From assembly GCA_963717145.1 (NCBI GenBank), contig OY970325.1:5219248-5283247 (forward strand): DNA of 64,000 bases, in the 5' to 3' direction. How positions within the stretch are numbered: position 1 is the stretch's first letter; each line of letters opens with the position of its first letter. Both the position numbers and the translations under genes were made by a program. The notes under the pieces were generated by a model. The model was not told where the DNA came from and did no database searches. It saw only the letters and a list, made by a program, of their open reading frames with translations. Of this stretch, positions 25,793-62,768 are shown in pieces. This DNA comes from an uncultured Armatimonadetes bacterium (GTDB lineage Bacteria; Armatimonadota; UBA5829; DTJY01).

Positions 25793-27783
25793 ATGGCAGT
25801 CGAACCCTACGATCCGCGACTCTTATCCGCAGCAGACACCGCGACCGAGCACGAATCCGCCCAGGCCGATCCTTCGACAGGCTCAGGAGGCATCACCTGG
25901 CGCGCGCTCCTGATCGGGTTCATCGCCATCATCCCCGGCGTCTTCTGGGGCGTCTACGGCGATGTCGTCTCCCAGACCGACCTGACCTCGACCTCGCTGA
26001 TGATGCCGCCGGTCCTCATCCTGATGGCGCTCCTCGTCCTCAACGGCATCGTCAGGCGCATCAGGCCGATATGGGTGCTCGGCCGCACGGAGTTGATCAC
26101 CATCTACGCGATGCTTACCGTCTCCGTGATCCTCTCCGGCATGGGGATGCTCCAGTTCCTGATGACATCCCTCGGCGCGGTCCCGCACTTTGCCACCCCC
26201 GAGAACGGATGGGGCGCTTACCTCAACATGGTCCCGCACTGGATCATGCCGAAGCTCTCCGCCATCGACGGCTTCTACGTCGGCAACAAGCCGATCCCCT
26301 GGTCTGCGTGGACGAACCCGATCCTCCTGTGGAGCGGATTCCTCTTCGCGATGCTCTTCTGCATGATGTGCATCAACACGATCCTCCGCAAGCAGTGGAT
26401 CGAGCGGGAACGGCTCACATATCCCATAGTCCAACTTCCGCTGGAGATGACCGACCCGAAGAGCCGGTTCTTCTCGAACAGGCTGATGTGGGCAGGGTTC
26501 TTCACCGCCGCCGCACTCGAGACGCTGAACAGCCTCGCGTTCCTCTATCCGAATGTTCCCCAGGTGCAGTTGCGGGCGTTCGACCTTCAGCCGTTCTTCA
26601 GCACCGCGCCGTGGAATGGGGTGGGGTACTTCCCGACGACCTTCTACCCGCTCGCCATCGGACTCGGGTTCGTGCTCGCGACCGACGTGAGCTTCTCGTG
26701 CTGGTTCTTCTACCTCGTGACCAAGGTGGAGGGAGTCCTCACCTCAGCGCTCGGCTGGACGGGTGGGGCGGGCGCGATGAGCGCTCCGCCGTATCTCGCC
26801 CAGCAGAGCGTCGGCGGGTTTATCGGCATCGGCGTCGTGGTGATCTACCTCGCGAGGAATCACCTCAGGGACGTCTTCGCGAAGGTCTTCACCCGCGACT
26901 CCGGCGTTGACGATTCCGAAGAGCCGATGAGCTATCGGATGGCGGTCTTCGGGCTGGGGCTCGGATTCCTCATCATGGTGATATTCTGCGTGGCGGTCGG
27001 CGTCTCTCCGGCTGTGGGGATCGCGTATCTCGGCCTCTACATGCTCTTCGCCACGACGATCAGCCGACTCCGCGCCGAAGCCGGGCCTGCATGGGTGATG
27101 GGCCCGGGTGGGACGCGCTCGACAGCCTCACCCGCCCGATCGGGACCGGGGCATTCAGCGGGGGAAACCTCGTCGCGCTCGCCTACTTCCACTGGTTCAG
27201 CATCGAGATGAGGTGCTGTCCGATGGGCGTGCAGGCCGAGGGGATGAAGATGGCGCAGGCGACCCGAACGAAGCAGCGGGTGATGACGATCGTTCTCCTC
27301 GCGGCGATGGTCATCGGGATCGCGGTCGGATTCTGGGCGTGCCTCGCGGTATGGTACAAGTTCGGCGCGGGGACGGCGAAGGTCGAGCCGTGGCGCACCG
27401 GTATGGGCGCGGCGCCATTCGACCGGGTCACGGACTACATGCAGAACCCGCAGAGGGCCGATGTCGCGGGCATCCTGGCGATCGTCTTCGGCACGGGGTT
27501 CACGTTCCTGCTCAGTCTGATGCGGAGCCGGTTCGTATGGTTTCCGCTCCATCCGGCGGGATACGTGCTCGCGAACACCGGCACGATGTACTGGCTCTGG
27601 TGTCCGTTCCTGCTGGCGTGGATCATCAAGGTCCTGATCATCCGCTACGGCGGGATCAAGGGCTACCGGACCGCGCTCCCATTCTTCCTCGGCCTCGTCC
27701 TCGGCGACTACATAGCCTCGAGCCTCTGGGCCCTCGCGGGCTCCGTTCTCGGCATCACCATGTACCGCTGCTTCCCCTGCTGA
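25793..27783 (+). CDS. Large polytopic membrane protein, paralog 2 (reading frame shifts around 27090-27210)
   Basis: ORF 25793-27211 continues in ORF 27091-27783. Together they align end to end with paralogs 1 and 3 (ILRKQWIERERLTYP, WFFY, FPLHPAGYVL, IRYGG). Confidence 0.55.
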
Positions 27784-27845
27784 TTTCATACTAGTACTCG
27801 TGCTCGTAATCGTACTCGTAATCGCGGTCTTGGGGTTGTCGCGCG

Positions 27846-28298
27846 CTAAGCAGTAGTGGCGACGATCTCCGACGGGGTGATCGCGGTGATCTCGGGGTAT
27901 CGAGCGAAGTCGGAGGGATTCAGGGTCACCAGATGAGTGATGCCGTGCGCCATCATGAAGGCGACTATCCGTGCATCGTGGGCCTTCTTGCCGAGGACGG
28001 AGTATGACTGGACTACCGTCCGCCAACGAGCCGCCATGTCTTCAGGCTCAGGCAGACAAGGAAAGAGTATCTCGATCTCGTCCATGTGGCCGTCGGCCTT
28101 CTCGAGGTCGAACCCCAGTCCATTCACATCCAGCGGCCTGGTAGCCACAACCCAGGATTCTATCAGCACCTGAGCACACACATGGCAAGGCACACCCGAC
28201 TTGCGAAGGGAATCCAGCGCCGCTACGATCTCAGGGTTGCTCGGATCGCTCAGTTCGAAGAACCTGAGGAGCACGTTGGTGTCGATCAGGAAGGTCAC
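27846..28298 (-). CDS. vapC: Type II toxin, PIN-domain ribonuclease (VapC-like)
   Basis: MTFLIDTNVLL start with the conserved acidic residues of the PIN fold. 150 aa. 4-nt overlap with the upstream antitoxin gene. Confidence 0.8.
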   Translation of the reverse strand: MTFLIDTNVLLRFFELSDPSNPEIVAALDSLRKSGVPCHVCAQVLIESWVVATRPLDVNGLGFDLEKADGHMDEIEILFPCLPEPEDMAARWRTVVQSYSVLGKKAHDARIVAFMMAHGITHLVTLNPSDFARYPEITAITPSEIVATTA

Positions 28299-28528
28299 AG
28301 CCGGTCCTCATACATATTCTCACGCCTGAGGGCCTCATCGGGGATGCGGACGCCGGATACCCGCCCGGCAAGGAGTCTCCGCCAGGCTGCATCTTTTGAC
28401 GAAGTGCGCCGACGCTGAGGCTTCTCAACCGCGAGTTGGATTACCAGCGACTGGTTGATCGGCAGGTCCACCGGATCGTCGGGAACGATGGTCTTGCCAT
28501 CATAATGCGCGCGGATTCTCATTGCCAT
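28295..28528 (-). CDS. vapB: Type II antitoxin (VapB-like, DUF104-like small beta protein)
   Basis: MAMRIRAHYDGKTIVPDDPVDLPINQSLVIQLA resembles the DUF104 antitoxin pattern. Translationally coupled to vapC. Confidence 0.55.
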   Translation of the reverse strand: MAMRIRAHYDGKTIVPDDPVDLPINQSLVIQLAVEKPQRRRTSSKDAAWRRLLAGRVSGVRIPDEALRRENMYEDRL

Positions 28529-28560
28529 GGGATTCACCTCGCAAGCATTATACCACATCG

Positions 28561-28800
28561 GCTCTGCATCGGTCGGGATACGTGTTGGTGAACACCGGCA
28601 CGATGTACTGGCTCTGGTGTCCGTTCATGGTGGCATGGTTCGTCAAGGTCCTGATCATCCGCTACGGCGGGATCAAGGGCTACCGGACCGCGCTCCCGTT
28701 CTTCCTCGGGCTCGTCCTCGGCGACTACATCGCCTCATCCCTCTGGGCCCTCGCGGGCTCCGTCCTCGGCATCACGATGTACCGCTGCTTCCCGTGCTGA
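28561..28800 (+). pseudogene. Duplicated 3' fragment (last 80 codons) of the paralog 2 membrane-protein gene. It forms a direct repeat with 27541-27783.
   Basis: About 230 bp nearly identical to 27545-27783. Both encode YVLxNTGTMYWLWCPF...IRYGGIKGYRTALPFFLGLVLGDYIASSLWALAGSVLGITMYRCFPC and stop. Confidence 0.7.
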
Positions 28801-29034
28801 TGGTCGATGGTTGATGGTTGATGGGGAAACGTCAGCCCTGAGTGTGCTGGTGAATGACGTCGTGTATAGAAGGGCGGGCCACCGAAGGGAGGACATTCCG
28901 ACGACCGCTGACGGGCAGTTCCCGCTAGTTGTGCCTGCCCCCCGTTTCTTGTCCCTCATTTCTGTCCGGTGAAGGAACTCCTCGGCATAAAGATGAATGC
29001 TCTAATCACTAGCTAACCCGCAGAGGTAGGGCGC

Positions 29035-32000
29035 ATGGGCGACAAGCCAAAGAAGGTTCGGACACCGATACCGGCGGAGATCGAGCGGCAAGTAAAAGTC
29101 GAGGCAGGCTTTCGCTGCAGCATACCAAGATGTGGAAGCACGTCAGTCTTGGAGATCCACCATATCGATGAAGACGCGAGCAATCATGATTCCACGAATC
29201 TGCTTGTTCTCTGTTCAATCTGTCACGCGCGTATAACCAGAGGGGAGATCGACCAGAAAGCTTGCCGGATGATCAAGCAGGCCATGCTCTCACACGGCGC
29301 GTCACAAGATGAGTTGCTCGCTATCAAGGACACCATCTTCTCAGAGATGCGCAGGCTGGTTGGTCAGCAGGATGTGTCCAGACCTCTTGACGAAGCCGAG
29401 AAGGGGAATATCGGAGTCCCTCTTGGCGTCTTGGACTCGAGTGGAAGACCGGAGAATGGCTTGGTTCCCGTGCGCCCGCCGTTCGCAGATGATCTGAGGA
29501 TCGACGAGAAAGCGGCTATCATGGACGCTCGGGCGCTCACCGAAGTCGACTACATATTCTTTCGGCGTTACTCGGATGGTCGCTCCTCTGTTATCTCTGC
29601 GTACGTTGTCGATAACACCGACGATAGGCTTACTCACGATGGGCTTGCCCAACTGCATCGAAAAGTCTGGCTGCGTGGCACAGTCCCCCTGCTCTACGTC
29701 TTCCAGCATACTCACATAGACCTGCTCGCCTGTGCAAGAGGAGCGGACTTCTGGAGAGATGACGAGGACAGATGCCACTACAACCCTGTGAAATGTATAC
29801 AGATTGCCGGTGACATAACTAATGAACTGAAACGCCTAGCCGAAGGGACGTTTTGGGAAGACCCGGCCAACAGGGAACTTGCCGATTATACAAAAGCTTC
29901 ACACCAGTGTTTGATACAGGCCGTTGTCGAGGCGGATCGCGACCTAAGAGGTAAGGAGAACCCGACACTCCGTCATCTCCTCCTACTGATGGTGCTGATC
30001 AAGTACCTGGAGGATCGCCGTGTTTTTCCGGAGGGTCGGCTATCGCAATTCAGGCCGAGTGCGGAGACCTTCTTCGACATACTCCGAGGTGGCGATCCAT
30101 CCCAAGTCTACGAATGCCTGGATGCCCTGGAATCCAGGTTTGATGGCGATATATTCGCGTTACCCCGCGTCGATATTACCTCTGAGAGACTACACAGCTT
30201 CGCTCGTCTTGTTGAAGCGAGAACGATAGGGCACCAGAGATATCTCTGGACCAGTTTTCATTCGAATACCTGCCGGTGGAGATCATAAGTCATCTGTATC
30301 AACGCTTCGTTGAAGGTGGTCATGGGGCAGTCTACACCCCACCGTTCCTCGCTGCGCTTCTACTAGATCATGCGATGCCCTACGAAGGGCTACGGGGTGA
30401 CGAACGAGTGCTCGACCCGGCGTGCGGCTCCGGCGTATTCCTAGTCGCTGCTTTTCGTAGACTCGTCAATCACTGGCGAAGCAAACACGGGTGGAAGCCG
30501 CCCGATGTAGAGGTGCTCAAATCCATCGCAAAGCATAGCATATTTGGCGTTGAGCTTGATGAGTTCGCGGTCAGTCTCACGGCTTTCAGTTTGTCATTGG
30601 CCATCTGTGACTCATTACATCCCAACGTTATCTGGGACAGGCTGAAGTTTGATCCCTTGTGTCATTCGAATGTGCTACAATCCGACTTCTTTGAGGTACT
30701 GCTTGCCTCTAGGTTAGGCAAGCGTACGATTCTGAATGATGAGTTCGATGTAGTGCTTGGCAATCCTCCCTTCGTGAGCATTCTGTCTGAGGCAGCCAGT
30801 GAAGTGAACCGCGTTTCTAGACGAGATACTTCCCGTGTACCAGTCTCCGACAAGCAGTTAGCTTATCTGTTTCTAGAGCAATCCTTTAGCATTCTTCGCC
30901 CTGGGGGTCGAGTCTGCCTTATTCAGCCTGCGGGATTGCTTCACAACAGGATGGCCAAGGCGTTCCAGCAGGGCTTGTTTCGGAAGCAGACGATCCATGC
31001 GATTCTGGATTTGGCTTCCATACGTAATCTTTACGACGGGGCCGATCCCAGGACCATCGCAGTCTCGGCCACACACAGCCCGCCAAGAAGCGATCATTGG
31101 ATCGAGCATCTGGTGTTTCGTCGTACAGTTAGCGTCAGAGAACGGATATGTTTCGAGCTAGATCACTATGATCGTTTCACGGTGTCCCAGCATGACGCGC
31201 AGACCGACCCCTATGTATGGAGGGTGAATCTATTCGGTGGAGGTCGTCTTCTCGATCTTTCCAGAAGACTAAGAGAGATGCCGACACTGCGGCAGCATCT
31301 CGACCATATGACTGAACGCAGGGGATGGGAGTATGGGGAAGGGTATATCGCAGGAAAGAAGGGCAAGAGATCGAGAGCCCTGTTCCTAACTGGCAAACCG
31401 CTCCTGCCAGCAGTGGCCTTCACAGATGAAGGGATAGATCACACCCAGCTGTCTACCGTGAAGGAGACCACCTTTGCTTCTCCCCGCAGAGAAGCATTCT
31501 ACACGCCGCCACTTATCTTAATTAAGGAAACAGCCTCTCTTCCCATAGTCCTATGGGATGAGGGGCCGATCGCATACGGACATAGGATTGTGGGCATACA
31601 CGCGCCATCGGCGCAATCAGCCGTCTTGCAGTCTATGTATCAGATGCTCAGAGAGCGGCATGCTACATATCGGTTCTGTACCGCTCTACATAGTACGGAA
31701 GCGGGGATAGACAGAGCTACCTCCATCCGAAAGCAGGATCTGGATGCCCTTCCATATCCCGAAAACGCGGAAGAGCTAGCCTTCTGTGATTGGGAGCAGT
31801 CACTCTGTGATGACGTCACTGGCCTGATGTTTGACTACTTACTGAAGGGAGAGGAGTCAATCCTTCTCAGGACAGCGGCAAGCAATGGAGAACTTGATCA
31901 GTACTCAGGCACGTTTGTCCAGATGCTAGGAAGCATCTACCCGAACCTCAAGGCATCCTTTCCACGGTTCACGAACGGCCTCATCTGCCAACCTTTCTAC

Positions 32001-32228
32001 TTCGACGAACTGCCAGATTTGTCATGGCTAGATGAGCCGATGTCGGGCAAGCTGGACGCGCTTATCTATGACCAGCGGCAGCATCTGCGAACGGTCCGTG
32101 TATTGCGTCTATACCTGGATAATGTGCTGCTGCTGATCAAGCCTGACAGGTTGCGGTATTGGATCAGATCTACGGCCATTCGTGATGCAGATGAAACATT
32201 GCTTCACCTACAGGAGTGGGGTTACTAG
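29035..32228 (+). CDS. HNH nuclease fused to a PglX/MmeI-like gamma-class N6-adenine DNA methyltransferase with a C-terminal specificity region. Two caller ORFs are joined across an apparent 1-nt frameshift at about 30200-30240.
   Basis: HNH at residues 25-70: CSIPRCGSTSVLEIHHIDEDASNHDSTNLLVLCSICH. The helical linker (LLLMVLIKYLEDRRVFPEG, FDGDIFAL) and ISLDQFSFEYLPVEIISHLYQRFV continue in frame 0 upstream of the caller GTG start at 30276. Methyltransferase motif I is VLDPACGSGVFLV and motif IV is VVLGNPPFV. Local GC is clearly below the flanking sequence. Confidence 0.65.
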
Positions 32229-32230
32229 TC

Positions 32231-32971
32231 ATGAACAGCGGTTATCCCTACTCAGCGCCAATCGGGAGGATCACAGCGGGTATTGAGCTGGGCACACTCG
32301 CTAACAAGATTATCGATTTCGTTCGCCAGCAGCTGCCAGCATGGAGGGACCACCCCGACCGTGATGATGTCCAGTCGGAGTTCCGCCTAACCTCCCAACT
32401 CTGTGTATTCCTCAATGCCAGGGCGCGCCAGGCTCGCTTCTCTATGATCCAGTTCCATCACGAGCTACCGCAGCCCCGGAGTCGAAGCGTCGATCTATCA
32501 GTACATCCGTTGGATCCCCTGCAGATCGATGCCCGACTCTTCTCAGTATTTCACCCAGTTCTGGTGTTAGAGTGCAAGCGACTTCCCCCTCCAGATCCAA
32601 AACGCGAGAGGGAGTATGTGACAGGCGATGCGAACAAGCGGAGCGGCGGCATACAACGTTTCAAATTGGGTTTGCATGGTTCTGACACCGATGTCGCGGG
32701 TATGATTGGATTTCTCCAGGAGGCCACCGCTCCACATTGGCATAGCACAATCAACGGATGGATTCTTGAGCTATGCAACGGCACTCCGGCCGATGGATGT
32801 ACTTGGAGCAGTGACGAGGTTCTATCGGAGATCGATTGCAGTGTTTCCGGTGGCGTTACCAGCTACTGCTCAGTTCACTCGAGGACTTCCTCAAGATCAG
32901 GCCAGCCTATCACCATCCATCATGTGTGGGTTGCGATGAACCAGCTACAGGGTGCTTGTAGAACGAGTTGA
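32231..32971 (+). CDS. PD-(D/E)xK-like nuclease-fold protein, translationally coupled to the methyltransferase gene
   Basis: Stop TAG at 32226-32228 and ATG at 32231. Possible nuclease motif SVDLSVHP ... PVLVLECKRL (D ... E-x-K). Confidence 0.45.
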   Translation: MNSGYPYSAPIGRITAGIELGTLANKIIDFVRQQLPAWRDHPDRDDVQSEFRLTSQLCVFLNARARQARFSMIQFHHELPQPRSRSVDLSVHPLDPLQIDARLFSVFHPVLVLECKRLPPPDPKREREYVTGDANKRSGGIQRFKLGLHGSDTDVAGMIGFLQEATAPHWHSTINGWILELCNGTPADGCTWSSDEVLSEIDCSVSGGVTSYCSVHSRTSSRSGQPITIHHVWVAMNQLQGACRTS

Positions 32972-33130
32972 TGCCGGTAAGTGGGGTGGTTGGTGGGGCT
33001 ATCTCAGGGAAAGATGTGACCAAATCGTTCTACAGGGGTTCTGTAGAACGATTTGACGCCGGTAAGTGGGGTATTTGGTGGAGGTAACTCACGGAAAGAC
33101 GCCGCCAACGCGGTCTACAGACAGTCTGTA
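32955..33130. repeat. Boundary repeat block at the right end of the low-GC island: direct repeats of TGTAGAACGAnTTGAnGCCGGTAAGTGGGGT plus two hairpins
   Basis: Copies begin at about 32958 and 33041. Hairpins CAAATCGTTCTACAG/CTGTAGAACGATTTG and CGCCGCCAACgcgGTCTACAG/CTGTAGACggaGTTGGCGGCG. Confidence 0.7.
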
Positions 33131-33342
33131 GACGGAGTTGGCGGCGTTTTCATGCCGATTGGGAATCACTGCTGGGGAGTTTGCGCCGTCCGGTAGCCGA
33201 GGGAACCCTGCTGAGAGCCGAGTGGCAGGCCATAATATCTAATAGGTAACGAGTAATGAGTAAGCAGGAGGAACGCGCGCTCATCTTTCGCCGGTCATTA
33301 CTTGTTACCCATTACCCATTGCGCCTTACCGGGAGGATACCC

Positions 33343-34002
33343 ATGGCTGGAGATTATGTTCCACATTCGGAGTTGAAGCTGATCAGTTGGGCGGAGAAGT
33401 TCGTGGGCTTCCTGGAGGATCATGCCGCCGAGACCGGCCTGCCTCCCGAGGAACTGGCGGCGGTCCGGTCGGAGTTCGATGAGTTCGCAAGCGCCTTTGC
33501 CGCGCACGACGCCGCTCGGGTTCACGCAAAGGCAATGTGCAGCGTGAAGGATGATGCCCGGCGGCCACTGGTGAACAGACTTCGCTCGATCGCCACGCGC
33601 GTGAAGGTCAATATGACCATCGATGCCGAGGTCAAGAACGGGGCACGGGCAGTCATCGGCAAGTCGCCTCGACACCCGCGGATGGGAGTATCCGACGACC
33701 GCCCGCACGCGATCATAGATACCGGGCAGCGGCTGAGGCACATCTTCCGCATCATGAACGAGAATACACAGGGCATACACAAGGCTCGGCCGTCGGATGT
33801 CGTCGCCTGCGAGCTTTGGAGGCGGAACGGCGATGGGACCGGCGACTGGAAATACGTTGGCGGCAAGTCGGGCAAGCCGTTTGCTATCCTGTATCGCGAG
33901 GAGGACTCCGGCAAGCAGGTGCAGTACCGGCTGCGCTGGGTCGGCCGCCAGGGTGTTAAGGGCGGCTGGAGCGGAATCAAGATCGCGACGATCGCGGCGT
34001 AA
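33343..34002 (+). CDS. Hypothetical protein, paralog of the gene at 62769-63443
   Basis: Shared N-terminus (MAGDYVPHSELKLISWAEKF versus MGGYLPGSDLELQVWMNKF) and C-terminus (RWVGRQGVKGGWSGIKIATIAA versus RWVYTNGVKGAWSDLESATIAA). Confidence 0.5.
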   Translation: MAGDYVPHSELKLISWAEKFVGFLEDHAAETGLPPEELAAVRSEFDEFASAFAAHDAARVHAKAMCSVKDDARRPLVNRLRSIATRVKVNMTIDAEVKNGARAVIGKSPRHPRMGVSDDRPHAIIDTGQRLRHIFRIMNENTQGIHKARPSDVVACELWRRNGDGTGDWKYVGGKSGKPFAILYREEDSGKQVQYRLRWVGRQGVKGGWSGIKIATIAA

Positions 34003-34250
34003 TGCGGAATGCGGATTGCGGAATGGGGCGGGGACGATGGGGTCCCCGCCCATCCTGCATTCTTGTCTGAGCCGGACGAAAGACACCGGCATACTCAGGG
34101 CTGACGGGGTGGGGGAGCGAACACCTGTGCCCAACATGCTCCTTCGAAAGAAACTCCCTACTGGGTGGGCGGGCGGGTACAAACTCCGGGAACGGCGACC
34201 GCATCCGGAGTTTGTACCCGCCCGCCCACCCAGTAGGGAGTTTCTTTTAC
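34003..34250. repeat. Post-stop hairpin built from CGGAAT-type repeats (34003-34062), followed by a long palindrome with about 45-bp arms (34147-34250)
   Basis: TAATGCGGAATGCGGATTGCGGAATGGGGCGGGGACGATGGGGTCCCCGCCCATCC. Then GAAAGAAACTCCCTACTGGGTGGGCGGGCGGGTACAAACTCCGG ... CCGGAGTTTGTACCCGCCCGCCCACCCAGTAGGGAGTTTCTTT. Confidence 0.8.
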
Positions 34251-34262
34251 TCCCATACTCCC

Positions 34263-36083
34263 TCACTCCTTGCCTCTGACCATCCAGGCCGTGCTGTGCG
34301 GGGGGATAGCGAGCCTCTGGGATGAAAGCCCGGTCGCGGGGAATGCCCTGCCGGGCGACTCGACGCTGACGGCGGTGGGCGAGTCCCAGTGATTGACCGC
34401 GACATCCACCTCGTAGCCATCCCCGACGAGGAGGGCGGTCTCGACGCCCGGGGTCGCGGGCAGACGGGATGCGCGGAGGGCGTCCGACATCTCTCTGAGA
34501 GTCGATTTCAGCGGACCGAGGCCGGAGTCCTCGCCGCCGTCGAGGGAGAGCGTGATGATCGTCGCCCCGCGCTTCTCGGCATCGGCAAGCGCGTCCCGGA
34601 ACGCGTCGGAGTAGGGCGCATCGGGGACGACGAGCAGCTTGTACGGGTCGATCTTGTCGGTGCTGGAGAATGCCCAGTCCACGGGGACATCCGCGTCGTG
34701 GAAAGTCTGCCAGATTCGTACCAGGCGGCGGTCGAGCGGGATCTCATCGGCATTGCGCATCACATACGCCTCGTAGGGCATCACGATGGCGGCTCGTGAG
34801 GGTGCAGGCTTCGCGGCGTAGAGGTAGGGCGCGACCTCCAGGAACGTCTTGTTCGCGTCGGCGGCTTCCTCGGACGCCTTCTTCTGCCAGAGGGGAGCGT
34901 CCGCCTCCCGCCGGCCCGTGGCGATGACGCCCGCGCGGTCGTCACGTTCGTTGTAGCCGTAGTGGAGGGGGAGCAAGCCGCGCGCGGACATACTGCCGAG
35001 CATCTCCGACTGACCCCACGGGCGGTGGAACTCGACCGGGCGGGCGGTCCACGCCTTGTAGCCCGAGTCGAGGTAGTAGATCAGCGCGCCGATCCGCCCC
35101 ACGGAGGCCGACTTCATCAGATCGGCGTCGGCGAGGACGAACTCGAGGCCGTCGTCGCCGTCCGGTTCGTCGCCGATCACGTCGAAATCCTTCCAAAGCT
35201 CGGGCCGGATCGCCCTTCGACCGATGCCGCCCTGGTTGACTCCGCTCTTGCTGCCTTCGAGGAGTCCGTGCTGGCGGAACGCGACCATCGTGTAGAGGCC
35301 GGGGAACTTCGCCTTGAGCCCGCGAGCGACCTGGCCCCAGCCGTCCGCAATGTACTGAGCGCGGAACTCGCCCCAGAGGAGGAGGGCGTCCTGCCTGTCG
35401 GTGTCGGTCGACTTCGGCGGCGTATCGGCGATCACCTTGCCGACGTGCTGCTTCTGGTACTCGATCCATGCGGCATTCGTGTCGGCGGAGTACTCCAGCC
35501 AGTCGCCGTTGTAGTCGGCCATGCCTGTCTCATAGATCACGAGCATGAGCGGATGATGCTTGCCGTCTGGCCCGAGGATTCGGGGCCACGCGGGATGGTC
35601 GATGTAGCGGGCGATCATCTGCGCCTCGTAATCGACCATGGCGGACACCCACTCGGGATCGCCCCACCGGGCGACGCATCCCGGGCAGAAGTTGGTCGGC
35701 GGCGCGCCCATCTCGGTGATCGGCGGCTCATGGCGCTGGGCGAACGGACCGCCCGCGTGGTAGTTCGCGTTCCACTGATCGGGCATCACCATCAGGCCGA
35801 GGCGCTCTGCGGTGGCGTAGTAGTGGTCCCAGACCTCGCCGAGCGAGAGATGCGTGTAGTCGGTATAGGCGACGGTCCATCCCCGGGCGACGACATCCTC
35901 GAGGTCGCGGTCCATGAGCGCGTACTCGGAGGGGAAGTCGTAGTACCGCTCGTAGTACATCGTGGAGACGAACGGCTTCCCGTTCTGGAGCATGCCGGTG
36001 AACGCCTTCGGCGGCTCGGGGATGTCGGCGGCCATCGCGCCGGATATGGTGGATATTGCGATCATCAGAATCACCGCTTTCAT
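34263..36083 (-). CDS. Secreted glycoside-hydrolase-like protein (TIM-barrel type with a C-terminal trimerisation-like domain)
   Basis: Signal peptide MKAVILMIAISTISGAMA. Tyr/Trp-rich barrel region. C-terminal KLLVVPDAPYSDAFRDALADAEKRGATIITL. Family assignment is tentative. Confidence 0.5.
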   Translation of the reverse strand: MKAVILMIAISTISGAMAADIPEPPKAFTGMLQNGKPFVSTMYYERYYDFPSEYALMDRDLEDVVARGWTVAYTDYTHLSLGEVWDHYYATAERLGLMVMPDQWNANYHAGGPFAQRHEPPITEMGAPPTNFCPGCVARWGDPEWVSAMVDYEAQMIARYIDHPAWPRILGPDGKHHPLMLVIYETGMADYNGDWLEYSADTNAAWIEYQKQHVGKVIADTPPKSTDTDRQDALLLWGEFRAQYIADGWGQVARGLKAKFPGLYTMVAFRQHGLLEGSKSGVNQGGIGRRAIRPELWKDFDVIGDEPDGDDGLEFVLADADLMKSASVGRIGALIYYLDSGYKAWTARPVEFHRPWGQSEMLGSMSARGLLPLHYGYNERDDRAGVIATGRREADAPLWQKKASEEAADANKTFLEVAPYLYAAKPAPSRAAIVMPYEAYVMRNADEIPLDRRLVRIWQTFHDADVPVDWAFSSTDKIDPYKLLVVPDAPYSDAFRDALADAEKRGATIITLSLDGGEDSGLGPLKSTLREMSDALRASRLPATPGVETALLVGDGYEVDVAVNHWDSPTAVSVESPGRAFPATGLSSQRLAIPPHSTAWMVRGKE

Positions 36084-36120
36084 AGTTCGATCTCCTTCGG
36101 GAGCGCCGATCACGTTCGGG

Positions 36121-36228
36121 CTGGAGTTGTACTCCAGCCCGCATAACTGACCGCGGAGTTGGACTCCGCTCGGACGGGGAGTACAACTCCCCTGGTTAGT
36201 GTCGCGTGCCGGAGTACAACTCCGGCAC
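36121..36228. repeat. Family D REP-like element (three GGAGTTGTACTCC-type hairpins) between convergent or divergent genes
   Basis: CTGGAGTTGTACTCCAG, GCGGAGTTGGACTCCGC, GGGGAGTACAACTCCCC, CCGGAGTACAACTCCGG. Confidence 0.8.
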
Positions 36229-36239
36229 GAACAGGGTGG

Positions 36240-38305
36240 TTATGTCTTGGTCTCCAATTTGGCCGGGCTTTCGCCGGACCGAATACGGGCGTACTCGATC
36301 AACCCGGCGAAGGGGTTCGCGTCCTTGTAGCCCCCGACGAGCGAGCCGTGGTCCACTCCGACCTGCAGACCCTCGACCGGCTTCACCGGGAGCCGGCCGA
36401 TGTCGTTCGAGGCGACGAGCTTCCTGTCCACCCACAACTGCGCGCCCTTCGACGTGAGATTGGCGTTGATGCGGGACCATCCCTCGCCGATCGGATACTT
36501 CGCCGCGACCTCGGTCAGCGCCCCGTCGATGCGGATCGCGAGCGTGGGGATTCTATCCCTAAGGTAGAGCGCGTACCCGTGGCTCTCTCCTCCCTGGGCG
36601 AGGATGACGCCATCCGACTCGGGCTTCACCATTGCCTCCACGTTCCAGTCGATCGCGCCGGGATCGAGGCTCTTGGAGGGTGGGACATCGACGAAATCGC
36701 CTTTCGCGAGCTTCAAGACCTTCTTGCCGCCGTCTTCCACGAACGTCCCGCCGTGGAGCGTGCCATGGTTCCCCTGGCCGGAGAGATCATCAGCGTTCCC
36801 CTTGCTGAAGTCGAAACTCAGCACCGGGCCGATCACCCGCTCGACCTTCTCACCGACGACCGGCGGCGCTCCGAGTTGGACTCCCTCGGGGTAGCCGGTC
36901 GCCTTTTTGAGCCGTGCAAGTTCCTTCCGCATCTCCTTGAGCCTGACCGCATGAGCCGGATCCTGCGCGAGGTTGTGCATCTCGATGGGATCGGCCTTCA
37001 GGTCGTACAGCTCGTCGATGTCGTTCATGTCCGGATAGGTGCAGTACTTCCATCGATCCGTGCGGACGCCGAGCATGAGGGGAAGGCCCGCCGCCCAAGA
37101 CTCGCGGAAGTATTCGTACAGGAACGACTCGTGGCCCGGCTTGCCCTTCAGGACGGGGACCATCGAGCGCCCCTGCATGCCCTCGGGGATCTTCACGCCC
37201 GCGAGTTCGAGCACGGTCGGCGCAAGGTCGATGTTCAACACAGTGCCGTCCACCTTGCTGCCTGCCTTGACGAGCTTCGGGTAGCGCACGAGCATCGGGA
37301 TGCGGATCGATTCCTCATACATCAGCCGCTTGTCGCCGAGTCCGTGCTCGCCGACGAAGTATCCGTTGTCGCCCGCGAAGACGATGATCGTGTTGTCGAG
37401 CTTCCCGGCCTTCTCCAGCGTATCGAGCACGCGCCCGATGCTCTCGTCGATCCCGAGGATCGTGCGGTAGTAGTCCATCATACCCTTGCCGTTCCAGTCA
37501 CCGCGCTTTATCTCGTCGGGGATCGGCTGGCCCTCGCTCGCGGCCCACTGGTTGCGCTGCATACCATGGGTGAACGCGCGTCTCATCCACTTCGGCTTGT
37601 CGGCGAACGTGTCCTTGAAGCTCGCGGGCTCGGGGATGGAGTCGTCGGCGAATGCATCCCTGTGCCGGGGCGCGGGGTGAAGGGCCCGTGCACCGCCTTG
37701 TGGGAGAGCACCATGCAGAACGGCTGGGTCCGATCCTTCCTCAGCCACCTGAGGGCGTAGTCGGTCAGGATGTCGCTCATGTACCCCTTGGCCCTGAACT
37801 CGCGACCGTTCTCGTTCAGCTTCGGGTCCTCATAGACTCCCTGCCCGAGGAAGCTGAGCCAGTAGTCGAATCCCGGGCGAGGATTCGACGTCGGGGCCTG
37901 ATGCCACTTCCCCACGAACGCGGTATCGTAGCCAGCATCCTGGAGAAGCTTGGGGAACGTGGGACATGAGGGATCGGGATCGAAGCCCTCGTTGGTGACG
38001 ACGCCGTGCTTGTGGGCATAGGTCCCGGTCAGGAAGCACGCTCGGCTCGGGGAGCAGAGCGCGATCGTGACGAACGCATTCCGGACGTGCGCTCCCTCGC
38101 GGGCGATGCGGTCGAGGTTCGGCGTCTTGAACCACGACGGGTGACCCATGAACCCCATTGCGTCATGGCGCTGGTCGTCGGTCAGGATGAAGAGGATGTT
38201 CGGCCGCTCGCCTGCATCGGCCTCATCCATGGAGAGCCCGGCGGCGAGTACCCCGGCTGTTGCCATCCCCCGACTCAGGAATTCACGTCGTGTGATTGTG
38301 GTCAT
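36240..38305 (-). CDS. Arylsulfatase (formylglycine-dependent sulfatase) with a TAT signal, split by a frameshift in a C-run near 37690
   Basis: TRREFLSRGMATAGVLAAG twin-arginine signal. CSPSRACFLTG sulfatase signature. The junction ...HKAVHGPFTP / (A)PRHRDAFADDSIPEP is restored by adding one C. Paralog of the gene at 38318. Confidence 0.7.
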
Positions 38306-38317
38306 TGTGTTCTCCTG

Positions 38318-39814
38318 CTAATCCTTGCGTTCGCCGCCGGTTACCGGCTCGGTCTTGGCGGCGGTCACCGGAGGCCGGCCAACTTGAACGCCCTCGGGGT
38401 ATCCGTTCGCCTTCTTGAGTCGGGCAAGCTCGTCCCGCATCTCCTTGAGCTTCTCCGCATGAGCCGGATCCTGGGAGAGGTTCGTCAACTCGTTTGGATC
38501 GCTCTTCACGTCGTACAGCTCCTCGATGTCATTCATGTCGGGATACGAGCAGTACTTCCATCGACCGCTTACAACTCCGAGCATGAGCGGCATGCCCGGC
38601 AGGCTCTCCTCGCGGAAATACTCGTAGAGGAACGACTTACGCCCCGCTTTCCCTTGCAGGACGGGGAGCATCGAACTGCCCTGCACGCTCTCGGGCGACT
38701 TCACGCCGGCGAGTTCCAGGAATGTGGCAGCGAGGTCTATATTCAGGACGGTCCCATCGACCTTGCTCCCCGCTTTCACGAGTTTTGGATAGCGCACGAG
38801 CATCGGGATGCGGATCGACGACTCATAGATCAGCCGCTTGGTGTTCAATCCGTGCTCGCCGAGGAAGTACCCATTGTCGCCCGCGAAGACGATGAACGTG
38901 TTGTCGAGGCGGCCGGACGCCTCAAGTTCACTCAGCACTCGCCCGACGCTGTCGTCGATCGCAAGTAGGGTCCGATAGTAGTCCAGCCCGTTCTTGCCGT
39001 CCCAGGGCTTCCTCTCGACCTTTTCGGGGATCGGCTTGCCCTCGCTTTCGGGCCACGTGCCGGGACCTGCCCCAGAGGTGAAGGCACGCCTCATCCACTT
39101 GGGCTTGCCGGCGAACGTATCCCTGTAGTTCGCGGGCTCTGGGAGGGATTCGTTCGCGAATGCATCCTTGTGCCTGGGAGCAGGGGTGAACGGCGCGTGG
39201 ATCGCCTTGTGGGCGAGCACCATGCAGAACGGCTGGGTACGGTCCCTTTTCAGCCACTTGATGGCATAGTCGGTCAGGATGTCCGTCATATAACCGGCGG
39301 CCTTGAACTCACGACCGTTCTCATTCAGGTCCGGGTCCTCGTACACTCCCTGGCCGAGAAAGCTCAGCCAGTAGTCGAAGCCCGGCCTGGGATCCGACTT
39401 CGGTGCCTGGTGCCATTTGCCGATGTAGGCAGTCTTGTACCCGGCTTTCTGGAGAAGTTGGGCGAAGTTGGGGCATGAGGGATCGGGGTCATAGCCCTCA
39501 TTGTTGACCACCCCGTGCTTGTGGGGGTAGGCCCCTGTGAGGAACGTGGCGCGACTGGGGGCACAGAGCGCCAGTACCACATAGGCGTTCCGGACGTGCG
39601 CCCCCTCTCGAGCGATGCGGTCGAGGTTCGGCGTCTTGAGGAACGGCGTCTTTCCCATGAACCCCAGGGCGTCGAAGCGTTGGTCGTCGGTCAGGATGAA
39701 CAGGATGTTCGGCCGCTCGTCTGCACTGGCCTCACTCATGGAGAGCACGGCGGCGAGTACCCCGGCCGCGGCAATTCCTCCAGTCATGAAGTCACGTCGT
39801 GTAATCGTGGTCAT
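38318..39814 (-). CDS. Arylsulfatase (formylglycine-dependent), TAT-exported
   Basis: TRRDFMTGGIAAAGVLAAV twin-arginine signal. CAPSRATFLTG. 498 aa, intact. Confidence 0.85.
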   Translation of the reverse strand: MTTITRRDFMTGGIAAAGVLAAVLSMSEASADERPNILFILTDDQRFDALGFMGKTPFLKTPNLDRIAREGAHVRNAYVVLALCAPSRATFLTGAYPHKHGVVNNEGYDPDPSCPNFAQLLQKAGYKTAYIGKWHQAPKSDPRPGFDYWLSFLGQGVYEDPDLNENGREFKAAGYMTDILTDYAIKWLKRDRTQPFCMVLAHKAIHAPFTPAPRHKDAFANESLPEPANYRDTFAGKPKWMRRAFTSGAGPGTWPESEGKPIPEKVERKPWDGKNGLDYYRTLLAIDDSVGRVLSELEASGRLDNTFIVFAGDNGYFLGEHGLNTKRLIYESSIRIPMLVRYPKLVKAGSKVDGTVLNIDLAATFLELAGVKSPESVQGSSMLPVLQGKAGRKSFLYEYFREESLPGMPLMLGVVSGRWKYCSYPDMNDIEELYDVKSDPNELTNLSQDPAHAEKLKEMRDELARLKKANGYPEGVQVGRPPVTAAKTEPVTGGERKD

Positions 39815-39830
39815 CTTTGTGCTCCTTAAG

Positions 39831-42827
39831 TTATCGCTGAACCTCCGCGAGGACCGGGGTCATCGGGAGGAGGGTGCGGACCTCCGACTTACCGCCGAGG
39901 CTGAGCAGATCGACGGCCTTGAGGACGGGATCGTCCGGGCTGGTCCGCTCATAGATCACATACCTGCGGGAGATGATCTTCACATTCACCGGCTTGCTGA
40001 GCAGGTCGACGATGTTGATCACCGTGCGGCCATCGATCTCCCCCGCGAGCCACTCGACGCCCCACACGGGCTCGCCGGTATCGGCATCGACCACGCGGAC
40101 TTCGGGCAATGCATGGGCGTCGTCCAGGCGGTTCATGAACGTCGGCCACATATCCTTCTCGGAATCCGCATCATACGGGATGGAGAAGCTCTTCAGCAGG
40201 GTGACTTCCGGCTCGCCGAAGGGACGGCCGTACTGGTCCTTCTGCGGCGCTTGTCCGATCACGATCAGACGGGTCGTCGGGGCGATGCTGATCAGGGCGT
40301 CGAACGCGGCCCTCGGAAGGTGAGTCACCTCCGGGAGGACGATCAGGCTGTAGTCCTTACCCTTGCCCGCCGCGAGCTGCCTCTCCGAGATGAAGTCGAC
40401 GTTCACGCCGCAGAAGTTGAGCGCGGTGTATGCCCTCCCGACCGCATCGGCGTATCCCTGGCTGTGGATCAGCGATGCCATCGAGTAGACGATCGCGACC
40501 GGAGAGTCCGCGTTCTGCAGGGCCGTCACCTCATCCGCGAACCGGTTGAGGTCGAGGCACGTCCGACCGACGGCCTCCGCGCATCCCGGGCGGTCCATGA
40601 CGTTGCCGTAGAACGGTGCCGTCCAGGCGTAGGAGGGATCGTCCCGGTCGGAGGCGCGATCCCAGACCCAGATCGTCGTCGCGCCCTGGCCGTGGATCGC
40701 TCCCTGCCAGAGGGCGGTGCGGAAGTGCTCCGGCGGGACGTAGTTCGTCGAGCCGTCGAGCGTGATATGGTTCTCGGAGTTGAAGATCGGCTTCCGGCCG
40801 ACCGAGCGCTGGAGGTCATAGGCGAGGTTCTGCCCATGCCAACCGAGCGCCCATCCGCCGCCCTCGCGTCCCCAGATGATGCAGTCGTTGCCGTTGATCT
40901 GCGAGAAATCGGCGAACCGCTCGGCATCGATCCCCCAGGCGACATGCGGGCGCTGGAGGAGAGTCCATGCCATGACCTTCGTGTGGATCGGGATGTTCGG
41001 CGCCATCTCGTGGATGATGTCGGCCATCCACTGATGCCAGCCTGCGAAGCGCTCCTGGTTGAAGATGCAGTAGTCATAGAACTGGGGCGCGCCGAAGTCA
41101 CCGTTGCCGGGGAGCGGGACGGACGCGAAGTCGGCGTAGGTCGTTCCGTAGAGCTTGTTCATCGTCGCCACGTCGCGGTGGACGCGCGCGAGGTACTTCG
41201 GCCACATCGCCCTCGTGATCTCGCATCCCTGGCCCCGGTCGAACATCGACTCGTTCGAGAGGCAGAAGCTGTTGAGCGCCGGCTTGTTCCCGATGATCGG
41301 GATGACGGTCCGCATGAACCGCTCCATCACCTGCTTGGCCTCGGGCTCATCGACGCAGAACCCGAGGAATCCGCCGCCGCCCTGACCGAGCTTCGGCCAC
41401 TTGGCCATCGCCCACGCGGGGAAGTAGTGCGGTGAGAGCAGGACGTTCACCATGACGTTGTTCTTCGCGGCGTTGTCGAGCACTTTGGCGACATCCCGCG
41501 CGGCCTTGAGGGAGATCTCGTCCTCGGTCGGGAAGGTGATCGCCGGCCCGACCTCGATCTGAATGATATTCACCCCGTAGCCTGGGAAGCGCGGGATGTC
41601 CTTGCGCACCTGGGAGAAGTGCCCGTAGCCGCAGAAGAAGACCGGCCCGCGGTCCGAGTTCCCCTTCGCATCCTTCCTGTCGCCGATGAAGCTGATGCCC
41701 TCGATCTCGAGCTTGCCTGTCTTGTATCGTCGAGCGGTCGGGACCGTCTTCGGATCGGCGAGGTAGGCCCTCATCTCAGCCATCGCGTTGTCGAGCGAGG
41801 CACTCAGGTCCTTGACGGCGAAACCGGCGCGCCGCTCCTCGCCCTTCACGAGGTCCGTGCGGGTGAGCGGGATGAACTGCTCCAGGAGGGTCTTCGTCGC
41901 CGTGGGATAGTCGAGCGGGATCTTCTTCGCGGCGCACTTGGCATAGAGTGACTTGAAGAGGCCGAACTTCCTCTCGACGGCATCGAGGTCCGCGCTGATC
42001 ACCTTGGGGCTGAGCTTCTCGATCGTGCGGGAGGCGGTGGCGATGATCTTGCTGTCTGCGCCCGATACCGTAACCTCGCACTGGAGATTCCTCACCGCAT
42101 CCTTGCCGGTATTCCATTGCCATTCGATCGAGTTCTGCCCCGGTTTGAGCTTCTCTATTCCCTGGAAGAGCGTCGTCTTTCCGGCAACGACGGACGCCTC
42201 GATTATACAGCCCTCCGGCGCGGAGTCGATTGCGACCGCGAGGAGCGCCGGCTTGTCGTCGCCCTGGACTTGCCCGGGGATGATCACCGATCCCTCGAAG
42301 CCGCCGCCCCTGAGAGGCATTCCGACGGGCCGGAGAGAGATGTCATCGATGGCGAGTTCCTTGCACACATTGACGATGTTGATCCCGATGTTGACGCCGG
42401 TCTGCCCGTCGCCGGCCTTGAAGCGGACCGAGACGCGCCGCCAGTCGTAGGTGCCCGCCGGGAGGTCCAGCGTGTACGTGCTCCAGTCGGTGAAGTGGAT
42501 GCCGGTGGCGACTCCCTCGCCGCGGACCCAGACGCTCAGCTCGTACTCGATCCCCGGTAGAACCCCGACTCCCTGATAGAGGCGGGCGTAGACCTCGGGC
42601 GCGAGACTGCTCCTGTTCACGAAGACGAGGCATCGCTCGCCGGAGTGCGGGTTGGTGGTGCTGGAATGGTAGCTCGCATCGGCGCGGGTGTACCATCCCC
42701 AGCCGGGCGAGTCGTTGCCGGGAGCGACTTCCTCGAAGCCGGGGTTGTTGATCGTCGGAACGAGCGCCGATCCGGTGCAGGGAGAGATCAGGGCGATGCA
42801 GAGCAGGATGACGGCGAGACAGCGCAT
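39831..42827 (-). CDS. Large secreted carbohydrate-active protein (N-terminal CBM-like beta-sandwich domains plus a TIM-barrel glycoside-hydrolase-like core)
   Basis: Signal peptide MRCLAVILLCIALISPCTG. NPGFEE...W...Y motif resembles a carbohydrate-binding-module fold. About 1000 aa. Family is uncertain. Confidence 0.5.
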   Translation of the reverse strand: MRCLAVILLCIALISPCTGSALVPTINNPGFEEVAPGNDSPGWGWYTRADASYHSSTTNPHSGERCLVFVNRSSLAPEVYARLYQGVGVLPGIEYELSVWVRGEGVATGIHFTDWSTYTLDLPAGTYDWRRVSVRFKAGDGQTGVNIGINIVNVCKELAIDDISLRPVGMPLRGGGFEGSVIIPGQVQGDDKPALLAVAIDSAPEGCIIEASVVAGKTTLFQGIEKLKPGQNSIEWQWNTGKDAVRNLQCEVTVSGADSKIIATASRTIEKLSPKVISADLDAVERKFGLFKSLYAKCAAKKIPLDYPTATKTLLEQFIPLTRTDLVKGEERRAGFAVKDLSASLDNAMAEMRAYLADPKTVPTARRYKTGKLEIEGISFIGDRKDAKGNSDRGPVFFCGYGHFSQVRKDIPRFPGYGVNIIQIEVGPAITFPTEDEISLKAARDVAKVLDNAAKNNVMVNVLLSPHYFPAWAMAKWPKLGQGGGGFLGFCVDEPEAKQVMERFMRTVIPIIGNKPALNSFCLSNESMFDRGQGCEITRAMWPKYLARVHRDVATMNKLYGTTYADFASVPLPGNGDFGAPQFYDYCIFNQERFAGWHQWMADIIHEMAPNIPIHTKVMAWTLLQRPHVAWGIDAERFADFSQINGNDCIIWGREGGGWALGWHGQNLAYDLQRSVGRKPIFNSENHITLDGSTNYVPPEHFRTALWQGAIHGQGATTIWVWDRASDRDDPSYAWTAPFYGNVMDRPGCAEAVGRTCLDLNRFADEVTALQNADSPVAIVYSMASLIHSQGYADAVGRAYTALNFCGVNVDFISERQLAAGKGKDYSLIVLPEVTHLPRAAFDALISIAPTTRLIVIGQAPQKDQYGRPFGEPEVTLLKSFSIPYDADSEKDMWPTFMNRLDDAHALPEVRVVDADTGEPVWGVEWLAGEIDGRTVINIVDLLSKPVNVKIISRRYVIYERTSPDDPVLKAVDLLSLGGKSEVRTLLPMTPVLAEVQR

Positions 42828-43285
42828 TACGGGCCTCCGCAAGGTGGAAAGGTATGCCCTAAGATACCCGTGCTGAGGCGCACTTGTCAAATATTATTGG
42901 GCAGCGACATGAGTCGATGGAAGATCCAGAACATGCATTCCGCCCAGCCGGTCCGCATATCTGTAACCTAGAGCAGGCCCTGCCAGTCCCGCTTACGCCA
43001 TCGTGCCGCTGCCCAAACTTAGTGTGCCGGTCCATCAGTCGAACAGACATACTGACGCACCGACAGTCTGACATACTGAAATACTGTGAATCTCTGCGGG
43101 TGGTGGATAGCCACCGTCTTCGGCGCAACCGCTGTCCGGAACGGTCTGGTGCTACCCAATCAAGGGGTAATGATTCTCGTATCGCAGCCATGGCGATACC
43201 AAGCACTAAGAGTATACCCTAAACCTACTAACTTGTCAACAATGCATCAACGCTGACGGCAAGTTTTTTCGCCGATCGGCATACT

Positions 43286-50638: not shown

Positions 50639-50890
50639 TACACCCGGAGATGTCTGGTCTAGCGCAGCTTTCTTCTGCGGCAACTACGGTATATATACCG
50701 TGCTGTACTTGCCGCATAGTGCGGTAAGTCGCGCACTCCCCCAGGACGTGCCGTTGCCGCCGTCCCGCCGGATGGCCGGCACGGAGGCACGGCCACTACG
50801 GTTTTCGTCGCACCGGCCTGCTTGTCCTGCGAGGCAGGGAAACGGATGGTTTACAATCCCGGGCGCTTTCCACTATCATTGTCCCACGCA

Positions 50891-62266: not shown

Positions 62267-62647
62267 CTTTCCCTCCTTTCATTCATAGCCCATAAAACAG
62301 AACACCCGCGTGCACTACATCGAGCAACCCACGGAAAGCTCGGAGTGTACAGCGGGTATAGTTATCTTCTACTCTCATCTGATGGAAAAGTCAATAGATG
62401 TAAGAGGGATTGCCGAAAAACCGGTATTATTACCAGTTGGTTGTCATGCGTGCGTTCCGTCGCAGGCATCGCGGGGAGGTTCGGAACAGACACAAAAAAA
62501 GTGGCCCGGTCCGCCGAAGCAGACCGAGCCGAGTCAGAAAGGAGTGATTATGTACCGATTACTTCCCGAACAACGATCAATACTTATTATCGGCCAACCC
62601 GCGCGAATCTTCAGGTCTTTTTGCCAGGTAATGGTTTGTGGTCTATG

Positions 62648-62768
62648 GCTGATGGTTAATGGGGAACGGGGGATGGGCAATGGTCCGGCCATGAACCATC
62701 AACCATCCCCCATGAGCCATTCCGGTCTCCGGCATCAACCATTGACCATCAGCCATCAACCATTCCCC
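62648..62768. repeat. Long hairpin built from GGTTGATGG-type repeats, immediately 3' of the minus-strand gene 62769-63443
   Basis: GCTGATGGTTAATGGGGAACGGGGGATGGGCAATGGTCCGGCCATGAACCATCAACCATCCCCCATGAGCCATTCC ... Short relative at 28803-28830. Confidence 0.8.

Follow-up and report, generated by a model that had tools for sequence, protein, structure and literature searches.

Two copies of the end of a membrane-protein gene flank a vapBC toxin-antitoxin operon in a 64,000-nt stretch of DNA from an uncultured Armatimonadetes bacterium (contig OY970325.1, positions 5,219,248 to 5,283,247; this whole stretch is called the window here, and positions are counted from its first letter). Copy A, which completes the gene, is discordant in ancestry with the gene to which it is attached. 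Copy B, the orphan behind vapBC, is not. The account that we favor, and to which we would give an even chance, is that the locus is the scar of an integrase-independent displacement of the gene's 3' end, anchored by homology, in which a gene end together with vapBC was acquired from a relative.

The anatomy of the repeats is clear. Repeat search and alignment place copy A at 27547-27784 and copy B at 28564-28801. Each is 238 nt long, their starts are 1017 nt apart, and they are equal at 218 of 238 positions (91.6%) without a single indel. The original prediction, made from the letters alone, had put the repeats at 27545-27783 and 28561-28800 and called them near-identical. They are real, but that word is too strong for 92% and the edges are those just given. 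On the left the likeness wanes over about five further bases, to about 27541/28559, and on the right it ends 1 base past the TGA stop. A 45-mer taken from the repeat is present at two places in the window, where 100 shuffles give an expectation of zero. Each copy consists of the last 79 codons, not 80 as first counted, plus the stop of the DUF6785/DUF6784 frame. Alignment confirms the earlier observation that both are ends of the membrane-protein gene that close in YRCFPC-stop (in full ...GITMYRCFPC-stop), and the two peptides are identical at 72 of 79 residues. Runs of 55 nt (27626-27680) and 37 nt (27573-27609) are identical between them. The only credible genes between the repeats are vapC and vapB, both on the minus strand, as had been described, and the repeat search found no inverted repeats or transposon ends around vapBC.

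How are the two copies related to each other? The 20 substitutions that separate them affect 11 codons synonymously and seven non-synonymously, with codon-position bias. All seven non-synonymous codons lie within the first 27, and the last 52 hold eight synonymous changes and no non-synonymous ones. A decaying duplicate should have roughly half of its changes non-silent, and by our own estimate (it is not the output of a tool) eight silent changes out of eight would then have a probability of about 10^-3. Because the last 52 codons changed only synonymously, it follows that both copies were functional ends of a gene during the greater part of their divergence. To judge from the sequence, they are two diverged alleles, neither an assembly duplicate nor a fresh target duplication.

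A duplication made by the assembler had been named beforehand as a possible source of the second copy. This is unlikely given 20 substitutions with codon-position bias, and duplication of one molecule is excluded because the copies have diverged. A subtler version is that two strain alleles were joined in tandem in a noisy long-read assembly, and three genes split by frameshifts within 11 kb do suggest an error-prone assembly. However, the 28558/28559 joint offers no common sequence through which a mis-join might have arisen, the copies differ by substitutions with codon-position bias and no indels, and copy B has lineage-specific decay. We regard such a mis-join as very improbable.

Orthologs of the gene reveal where each copy belongs. 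They come from 43 loci (L001-L011 and L013-L044), of which 10 were found by a genome scan, 32 by a metagenome scan and one, L011, as the closest protein match. L011 is the closest ortholog found (88.6% nt, 90% aa), followed by L001, L013, and L014 at ~79% aa. Copy B and L011 share states that other orthologs lack, namely 27568T, 27618A, and a serine codon with a double change at 27720-27722, and at these sites copy A has kept L001-like states. Eight quartet sites join A with L001 and B with L011, four join A with B and L011 with L001, and none joins A with L011 and B with L001. In a relative-rate (Tajima) test with L001 as the outgroup the counts for A and B are 2 vs 13 (p=0.007), with A closer to L001, whereas ahead of the repeat L001 is equally distant from the window and from L011. 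The same question can be put by counting L011-derived states, defined by sites at which L001 and L015 have one state and L011 another. Of 44 such states in the 586 nt that precede the repeat, the window shares 34. Copy A shares 6 of 20, which differs from the upstream region (Fisher p=0.0006), and copy B shares 12 of 20, which does not (p=0.23).

Copy B also bears marks of its own. Three of its substitutions fall at residues that are invariant in all orthologs (HPAG to HRSG, LAN to LVN), and the changes unique to it are mostly non-synonymous, a pattern consistent with a short spell of neutral decay once the fragment had been orphaned. Neither a start codon nor a ribosome-binding site is convincing in copy B, and the best reading of it is that of a non-functional pseudogene fragment. 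We have moderate confidence that copy B is the resident end of the gene and that copy A arrived from another lineage. The earlier suggestion that vapBC came with its own copy of the 3' end is supported to this extent, with A looking like the incoming end and B like the resident one.

Is there a relative from which such a segment might have come? A 1727-bp contig from SRR29054613, L012, was found through the closest VapC homolog and is about 80% identical to the window in nucleotides. Read in the orientation of the window, it contains the last 30 nt of the membrane-protein gene, the spacer, vapC, vapB, ATGTGGTATAAT, 54 unrelated nt, and then the stop of a GH42-like gene, the ortholog of the window gene at 39831-42890. 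Base-by-base alignment shows that homology between the window and L012 stops exactly at 28558, after ...ATTATACCACAT, no more than 5 nt before copy B begins, and that it resumes at 39839. There is no second repeat on the far side of vapBC in L012. The spacer behind copy A aligns continuously with that of L012 (local alignment score 44, reached by none of 3000 shuffles) and is unrelated to the flank of copy B. The VapC ortholog of L012 is about 85-86% identical in amino acids, and the ORF (open reading frame) upstream of it, the counterpart of VapB, is 82% identical. The vapC gene of L012 (1197-1331) appears frameshifted near its 5' end, giving split tblastn matches.

These comparisons put rough limits on the order of events. 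vapBC and the spacer differ by ~20% between the window and L012, copies A and B differ by 8%, and decay-type change in B amounts to ~1-3%. Because ~20% exceeds 8%, the adjacency of vapBC to the gene end is older than the orphaning of B or independent of it. It follows that insertion of vapBC did not create the duplication in place. Transfer of a pre-assembled unit of gene end, spacer, and vapBC from a lineage of the L012 type would fit.

The alternative that this bears on most directly is in situ insertion of vapBC with a 238-bp target duplication, of the Nobusato/Furuta type, with later divergence and possibly allelic replacement of A. Restriction-modification (RM) genes insert with long target duplications, leaving repeats of 46-423 bp with identities as low as ~93% that often span the stop, so that the target survives (PMC2853133, PMC3874152). 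Our locus resembles those loci (Nobusato et al. 2000; Furuta et al. 2010, PMC2853133) in having an addiction-type module, repeats of >30 bp, and no mobility genes. Both have a small selfish module between ~100-400 bp repeats that span the stop, the published repeat identities reach as low as ~93% (PMC2853133), and sliding identity shows the membrane-protein gene to be mosaic among lineages, with a mixed recombination history. However, there both repeats derive from a single target and here they have two ancestries, with toxin-antitoxin genes as the cargo. Both repeats should then relate equally to an empty site, yet the affinities of A and B differ. The eight synonymous and no non-synonymous changes in the last 52 codons and the two-base serine switch shared by B and L011 are unexpected for a decaying fresh duplicate, and the adjacency shared with L012 at ~20% divergence, against 8% between A and B, would require an extra event. 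We think it quite unlikely that the repeats arose in this way.

If displacement by an incoming end is correct, the donor would have been a related Armatimonadota lineage with vapBC convergent just behind the orthologous DUF6785 gene, as in L012. The incoming segment would have held at least the last 79 donor codons, the 62-nt spacer, vapC, vapB, and the vapBC promoter box. On its left side, the segment would have recombined by homology within the resident gene, either at 27547 or a few tens of bases 5' of it. On its right side there would have been no homologous partner, and an illegitimate joint would have formed at 28558/28559, ~79 codons before the resident stop. This might have happened by homology-facilitated illegitimate recombination or by circularization of the fragment and a single Campbell-type crossover. 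Either way the gene would now end in donor copy A, with the resident end B shunted behind vapBC as a non-functional fragment. The illegitimate junction is mapped to 28558/28559 by the L012 comparison, and the homologous one is only bracketed, around 27495-27570.

Several observations sit less comfortably with this scheme. The left junction is not located, sliding identity being too noisy in a gene that is mosaic among lineages. Copy B is resident-type from the first informative site, which would put a RecA crossover at the extreme left edge of the repeat, just where a site-specific crossover is predicted to lie; a RecA crossover would be expected sooner within the identical runs of 55 or 37 nt. 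In homology-facilitated illegitimate recombination, recipient DNA is as a rule lost, not duplicated. For the direction of transfer there are ~20 informative sites in 237 nt and a single close outgroup, L011, whose own extreme 3' end bears a cluster of unique changes. Moreover, the stretch after the stop in L011 weakly resembles the A/L012 spacer (p about 0.05-0.1; against spacer A itself the match is not significant, p=0.10), and this would suit a copy A that is typical of the clade. The L012 contig ends 30 nt into the gene end, and the full gene is not visible there. Finally, the original prediction had pointed to related genomes as the place to look for an empty site, that is, a full-length gene ending in B. 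There is no true empty site among the 43 loci, none of which is closer than ~89% nt or shares the downstream region.

Could a site-specific recombinase have built the locus instead? An integrative element that targets the 3' end of a protein-coding gene, akin to islands that target tRNA genes, had been proposed at the outset. In this form it would be a mini-element made of end A and vapBC, non-autonomous or decayed like a cis-mobilizable element (CIME) or like e14/phage 21 in icd, with a surrogate 3' end in its attP and an integrase encoded elsewhere or lost. The architecture equals that of icd/e14/icdC, in which an intact gene runs into the element and a mostly synonymous C-terminal pseudogene stands at the far end (PMC13626634), and the direct repeats are attL/attR-like, with an element-borne copy completing the target gene. 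In addition, A is donor-type and B resident-type throughout their informative length, which would put the point of exchange on the left edge of the repeat or further to the left, as for an att core, and the identical stretches GGGATACGTG and the 37-mer lie near that edge.

However, tests of ~50 ORFs across the 64 kb, a set that takes in nearly all of those of at least 200 aa but not shorter ones, ORFs without hits, or the rest of the genome, turned up no domain of an integrase, recombinase, or transposase. The 1017-bp unit is itself filled by vapC and vapB and has no room for a recombinase. This sets it apart from e14 (Hill et al. 1989, as in PMC13626634), which shares the surrogate 3' end and the native end left as a mostly synonymous icdC pseudogene but is a 15-kb prophage with an integrase and SOS-induced site-specific excision. 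Neither a second gene-end fragment nor a downstream vapBC occurs at any of the 43 orthologous loci (0/43), viral-contig scans found no contig carrying the gene end or VapC, and there are no Rfam families or tRNA targets near the locus. In L012 vapBC has no attR-like far fragment, and in L058 it lies at a different gene. An element of the tRNA-targeting kind is therefore unsupported, and a site-specific mini-element seems to us unlikely.

Perhaps the polarity of the event is the reverse. vapBC and copy A would then be resident, and an 11.3-kb block at 28559-39830, opening with copy B as a foreign fragment of the gene end and followed by the RM island, orf33256, orf34263c, and the sulfatase genes, would have been imported. 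Its right junction would be anchored by homology in the GH42-like gene (39831-42890) and its left junction would be an illegitimate joint beside the vapB promoter. The arrangement in L012, where the GH42-like stop is 54 nt from vapB and homology to the window resumes at 39839, suits this idea. So does the fact that the A spacer is common to L012 and, weakly, to L011, whereas the flank of B has no relative. However, the copy whose ancestry conflicts with that of its own gene is A and not B, and copy B bears the decay-type substitutions. The GH42-like gene also has orthologs in L046-L050 (75-79% nt) that are followed by a sulfatase gene and then by an ortholog of orf34263c (85% aa in L050) or orf33256 (54% aa in L046-L048). 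Because of this order, 33256-39830 of the window is the old neighborhood of the GH42-like gene and the GH42-vapB adjacency of L012 is derived. An imported block would require the window to have lost this ancestral arrangement and then regained it, and we consider the reverse polarity improbable. For the same reason L012 is weakened as proof that vapBC is native between two genes, the more so as its contig breaks off within the gene end.

What surrounds the gene in other lineages is informative in its own right. The upstream neighborhood (livG-livF-paaK-porin-like gene-membrane-protein gene) is conserved in L001, L013, and L014, and synteny ends at the stop codon. Downstream, the content differs in almost every lineage. 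In L011 (1821-3363) the ortholog is followed by a DUF3037-like gene and a HipA_2 kinase gene that together match the PADLOC candidate PDC-M66A, a different addiction- or defense-type pair at the same position. The vapBC cassette, for its part, changes context, because the ortholog in L058, from ERR13934896 (1-1082; 79.6% nt), overlaps the stop of an FGGY-kinase-like gene, with no membrane-protein gene and no spacer. Five more distant vapBC loci (61-63% aa) lie among housekeeping genes and have no flanking repeats. An integration hotspot assembled in more than one step, as had been suggested, is plausible in that the cargo at this position varies among relatives, but a single mechanism behind it is not demonstrated.

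Whatever its origin, the repeat pair might still be active. With identical runs of 55 and 37 nt, RecA could release a 1017-bp circle carrying vapBC and one gene end, which would restore an intact gene. The predicted circle junction would join the region upstream of vapB, ...ATTATACCACAT, to CGGCTCTGCATC, followed by a hybrid B/A repeat, the spacer, and vapC. The repaired chromosome is predicted to have a single hybrid gene end and then the flank of copy B, TGGTCGATGGTTGATGG. What if such circles re-inserted by single crossovers into conserved DUF6785 3' ends of related genomes? In this hypothetical scenario the repeat-flanked unit would be a functional, integrase-free mobile cassette, and bringing one's own gene end would be a general route into chromosomes for toxin-antitoxin pairs, and perhaps also for the neighboring RM and HipA-like modules. 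A doubtful remnant at 28979-29016 (see below) would be an older layer of the same process. We would count this as a long shot.

The closest parallels to the displacement of a gene end are found elsewhere. In rhs loci, C-terminal displacement has been proposed to involve a circular intermediate that carries a core fragment, a tip, and the intervening genes (PMC2935791, Jackson et al. 2009), and the same displacement model has been applied to the ends of type VI secretion system (T6SS) effectors with their immunity genes (PMC5361080, Kirchberger et al. 2017). Two routes have been put forward for such loci, a circular intermediate that enters by one homologous crossover and homology-facilitated illegitimate recombination. 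Like rhs, contact-dependent inhibition (CDI), and T6SS loci, the one described here consists of an intact gene, cargo, and an orphan 3' fragment from a conserved part of the gene, with an end that was brought along and no integrase. Here too the attached end is foreign in ancestry when set against the 5' portion of the gene (the 6/20 vs 34/44 comparison above, p=0.0006, which is of moderate strength). However, what is displaced in those systems is a variable toxin domain accompanied by an immunity gene, and several orphans often stand in an array. At our locus the displaced end is a conserved DUF6784 membrane C-terminus that confers no new function, the cargo, vapBC, lies on the other strand, and a single clear orphan is accompanied by a doubtful 38-nt remnant. 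In other words, the locus works like a member of the 3'-end displacement class but lies outside polymorphic-toxin loci. Most likely this is a known kind of event, integrase-independent end displacement, seen here with toxin-antitoxin cargo in an understudied phylum.

The locus bears on the open question of how toxin-antitoxin genes enter chromosomes (PMC7167474). Both junctions of one acquisition seem to have been kept, and they point to homology-anchored capture beside a conserved gene, with neither a transposase nor an integrase at work. The locus stands alone, with no new function and no generality found. It can serve as a worked example and supplies a search image for systematic scans, namely an orphan 3' gene fragment just past a small accessory module. 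The features of the locus are collected in Table 1.

Table 1. Features at and around the vapBC locus of the window.
Feature	Position	Strand	Remarks
Membrane-protein gene, paralog 2	25793..27783	+	Pfam DUF6785 E=1e-129, DUF6784 E=1e-34
Repeat copy A	27547..27784	+	Last 79 codons + stop, attached to the gene; putative incoming (donor-type) end
Spacer	27784/27785..27845		62 nt after the stop; CGTACT/CGTAAT-type hexamer repeats; putatively part of the incoming segment
vapC, PIN-domain toxin, 150 aa	27846..28298	-	Pfam PIN 37.9 bits vs cut-off 23.6
vapB, putative antitoxin, 77 aa	28295..28528	-	ATG at 28528 preceded by GAGGTG; 4-nt overlap with vapC
ATGTGGTATAAT, candidate extended -10 box of vapBC	28547..28558	-	Last stretch common to the window and L012
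Repeat copy B	28564..28801	+	Orphan 3' fragment of the membrane-protein gene; putative resident end, displaced and beginning to decay
Flank of copy B	28802..29034		GGTTGAT heptamers; REP-like element 28830-28861; possible 38-nt third remnant 28979-29016
Low-GC island	29035..32971	+	Split type IIG RM gene and 251-aa ORF of unknown function (32216-32971); a neighbor, outside the repeat unit

Most probably vapBC is an ordinary type II toxin-antitoxin operon encoding a PIN-domain RNase toxin and a small antitoxin. Across 40 homologs of VapC the acidic residues D6, E47, and D108 never vary, and at least 90% retain D130. The match to the NCBIfam VapC subfamily is under its cut-off, and neither VapC nor VapB has a useful match among PDB sequences. 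VapB itself matches no family in Pfam, NCBIfam, PADLOC, or PDB, although 77-aa ORFs also precede the VapC homologs of L053, L055, and L056. In other words, the locus resembles described type II VapBC systems in its PIN toxin with conserved acidic residues and in its small upstream gene, joined to vapC by a 4-nt overlap in one operon, but differs in that the putative antitoxin belongs to no described family. Transcription of vapBC is most likely driven from the candidate extended -10 box, within which the core candidate, TGGTATAAT (28547-28555, minus strand), is conserved in L012. A simple promoter scan did not flag the box because there is no -35 match. Copy B is the DNA directly upstream of it.

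Short tandem repeats start right after the stops of both copies, hexamers behind A (27790-27830, common to L012) and GGTTGAT heptamers behind B (28803-28824). The heptamer motif recurs near 62.7 kb (62639-62763). The flank of copy B has no homolog downstream of any ortholog. Within it, a 17-mer at 28979-28995 matches the gene end (28763-28779) at 15 of 17 positions, with an in-frame stop at an equal distance, and reads LGIKMNALITS-stop. The number of matches this good expected per window is 0.03, and the local-alignment shuffle gives p=0.02. The stretch 28979-29016, which lies directly before the island, could be an older, degenerate third remnant of the gene end, though the case for it is thin.

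The low-GC island was originally placed immediately past the second repeat. It starts at 29035, ~230 nt beyond copy B, and its GC content is 0.52-0.55 vs about 0.63 in the flanks. No further full copy of the gene end bounds it. Its type IIG RM gene is split into 29035-30288 and 30276-32228, with a switch of frame near 30240. The domains recognized are a weak N-terminal HNH, the Pfam families Eco57I, N6_Mtase, and MmeI_Mtase, and positions 285-542 of the PADLOC REase_MTase_IIG profile, and the second frame contains the motif FSFEYLPVEIISHLYQ. A 32-nt inverted pair (28830-28861/34075-34106) was considered as a possible pair of island termini and rejected, since it belongs to a REP-like (repetitive extragenic palindromic) family and encloses orf33256, an ancestral neighbor of the sulfatase gene. 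Elements of this family, with the core ACTCAGGGCTGNCGGGGTG, stand in inverted orientation on either side of the RM island and orf33256 (28830-28861, 34075-34111). REP-like units form tandem arrays in other Armatimonadota (L002 9550-9900; L027 60-720, on both sides of a GIY-YIG-like ORF). An 85-nt tandem duplication with 78% identity (32945-33114) overlaps the end of the last ORF of the island, and a perfect 43-nt inverted repeat with a 15-nt loop (34147-34247) lies between orf33256 and orf34263c.

The membrane-protein gene itself contains a 1-nt frameshift near 27100 (27085-27120), in the run GGGCCCGGG, that is absent from every ortholog. Across this site all orthologs read AEAGPAWVMGPGWDA, and the gene reads as full length once the frameshift is repaired. 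Two further DUF6785/DUF6784 paralogs, at 343-2499 and 50822-52870, share 28-37% aa identity. This makes three distant paralogs in 64 kb, with genes for sugar and amino-acid transport, glycoside hydrolases, and sulfatases as neighbors, and the invariant MYRCFPC ending is found only in paralog 2 and its orthologs. Within 11 kb three genes are split by frameshifts, namely the membrane-protein gene, the type IIG RM gene (30230-30290), and sulfatase-2 (36240-38305), which is read as two overlapping ORFs at 37583-38305 and 36240-37748. They reflect either a noisy long-read assembly or local pseudogenization. The 533-aa ORF at 36159-37760 (+) is an antisense shadow of the second sulfatase gene, and its apparent homologs in L046-L050 are on the reverse strand of the sulfatase genes there. 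Elsewhere in the window, ARAGORN calls a 100-nt tRNA-Ala(cgc) at 54463-54562 (-), and Rfam at its gathering threshold reports no family anywhere in the window.

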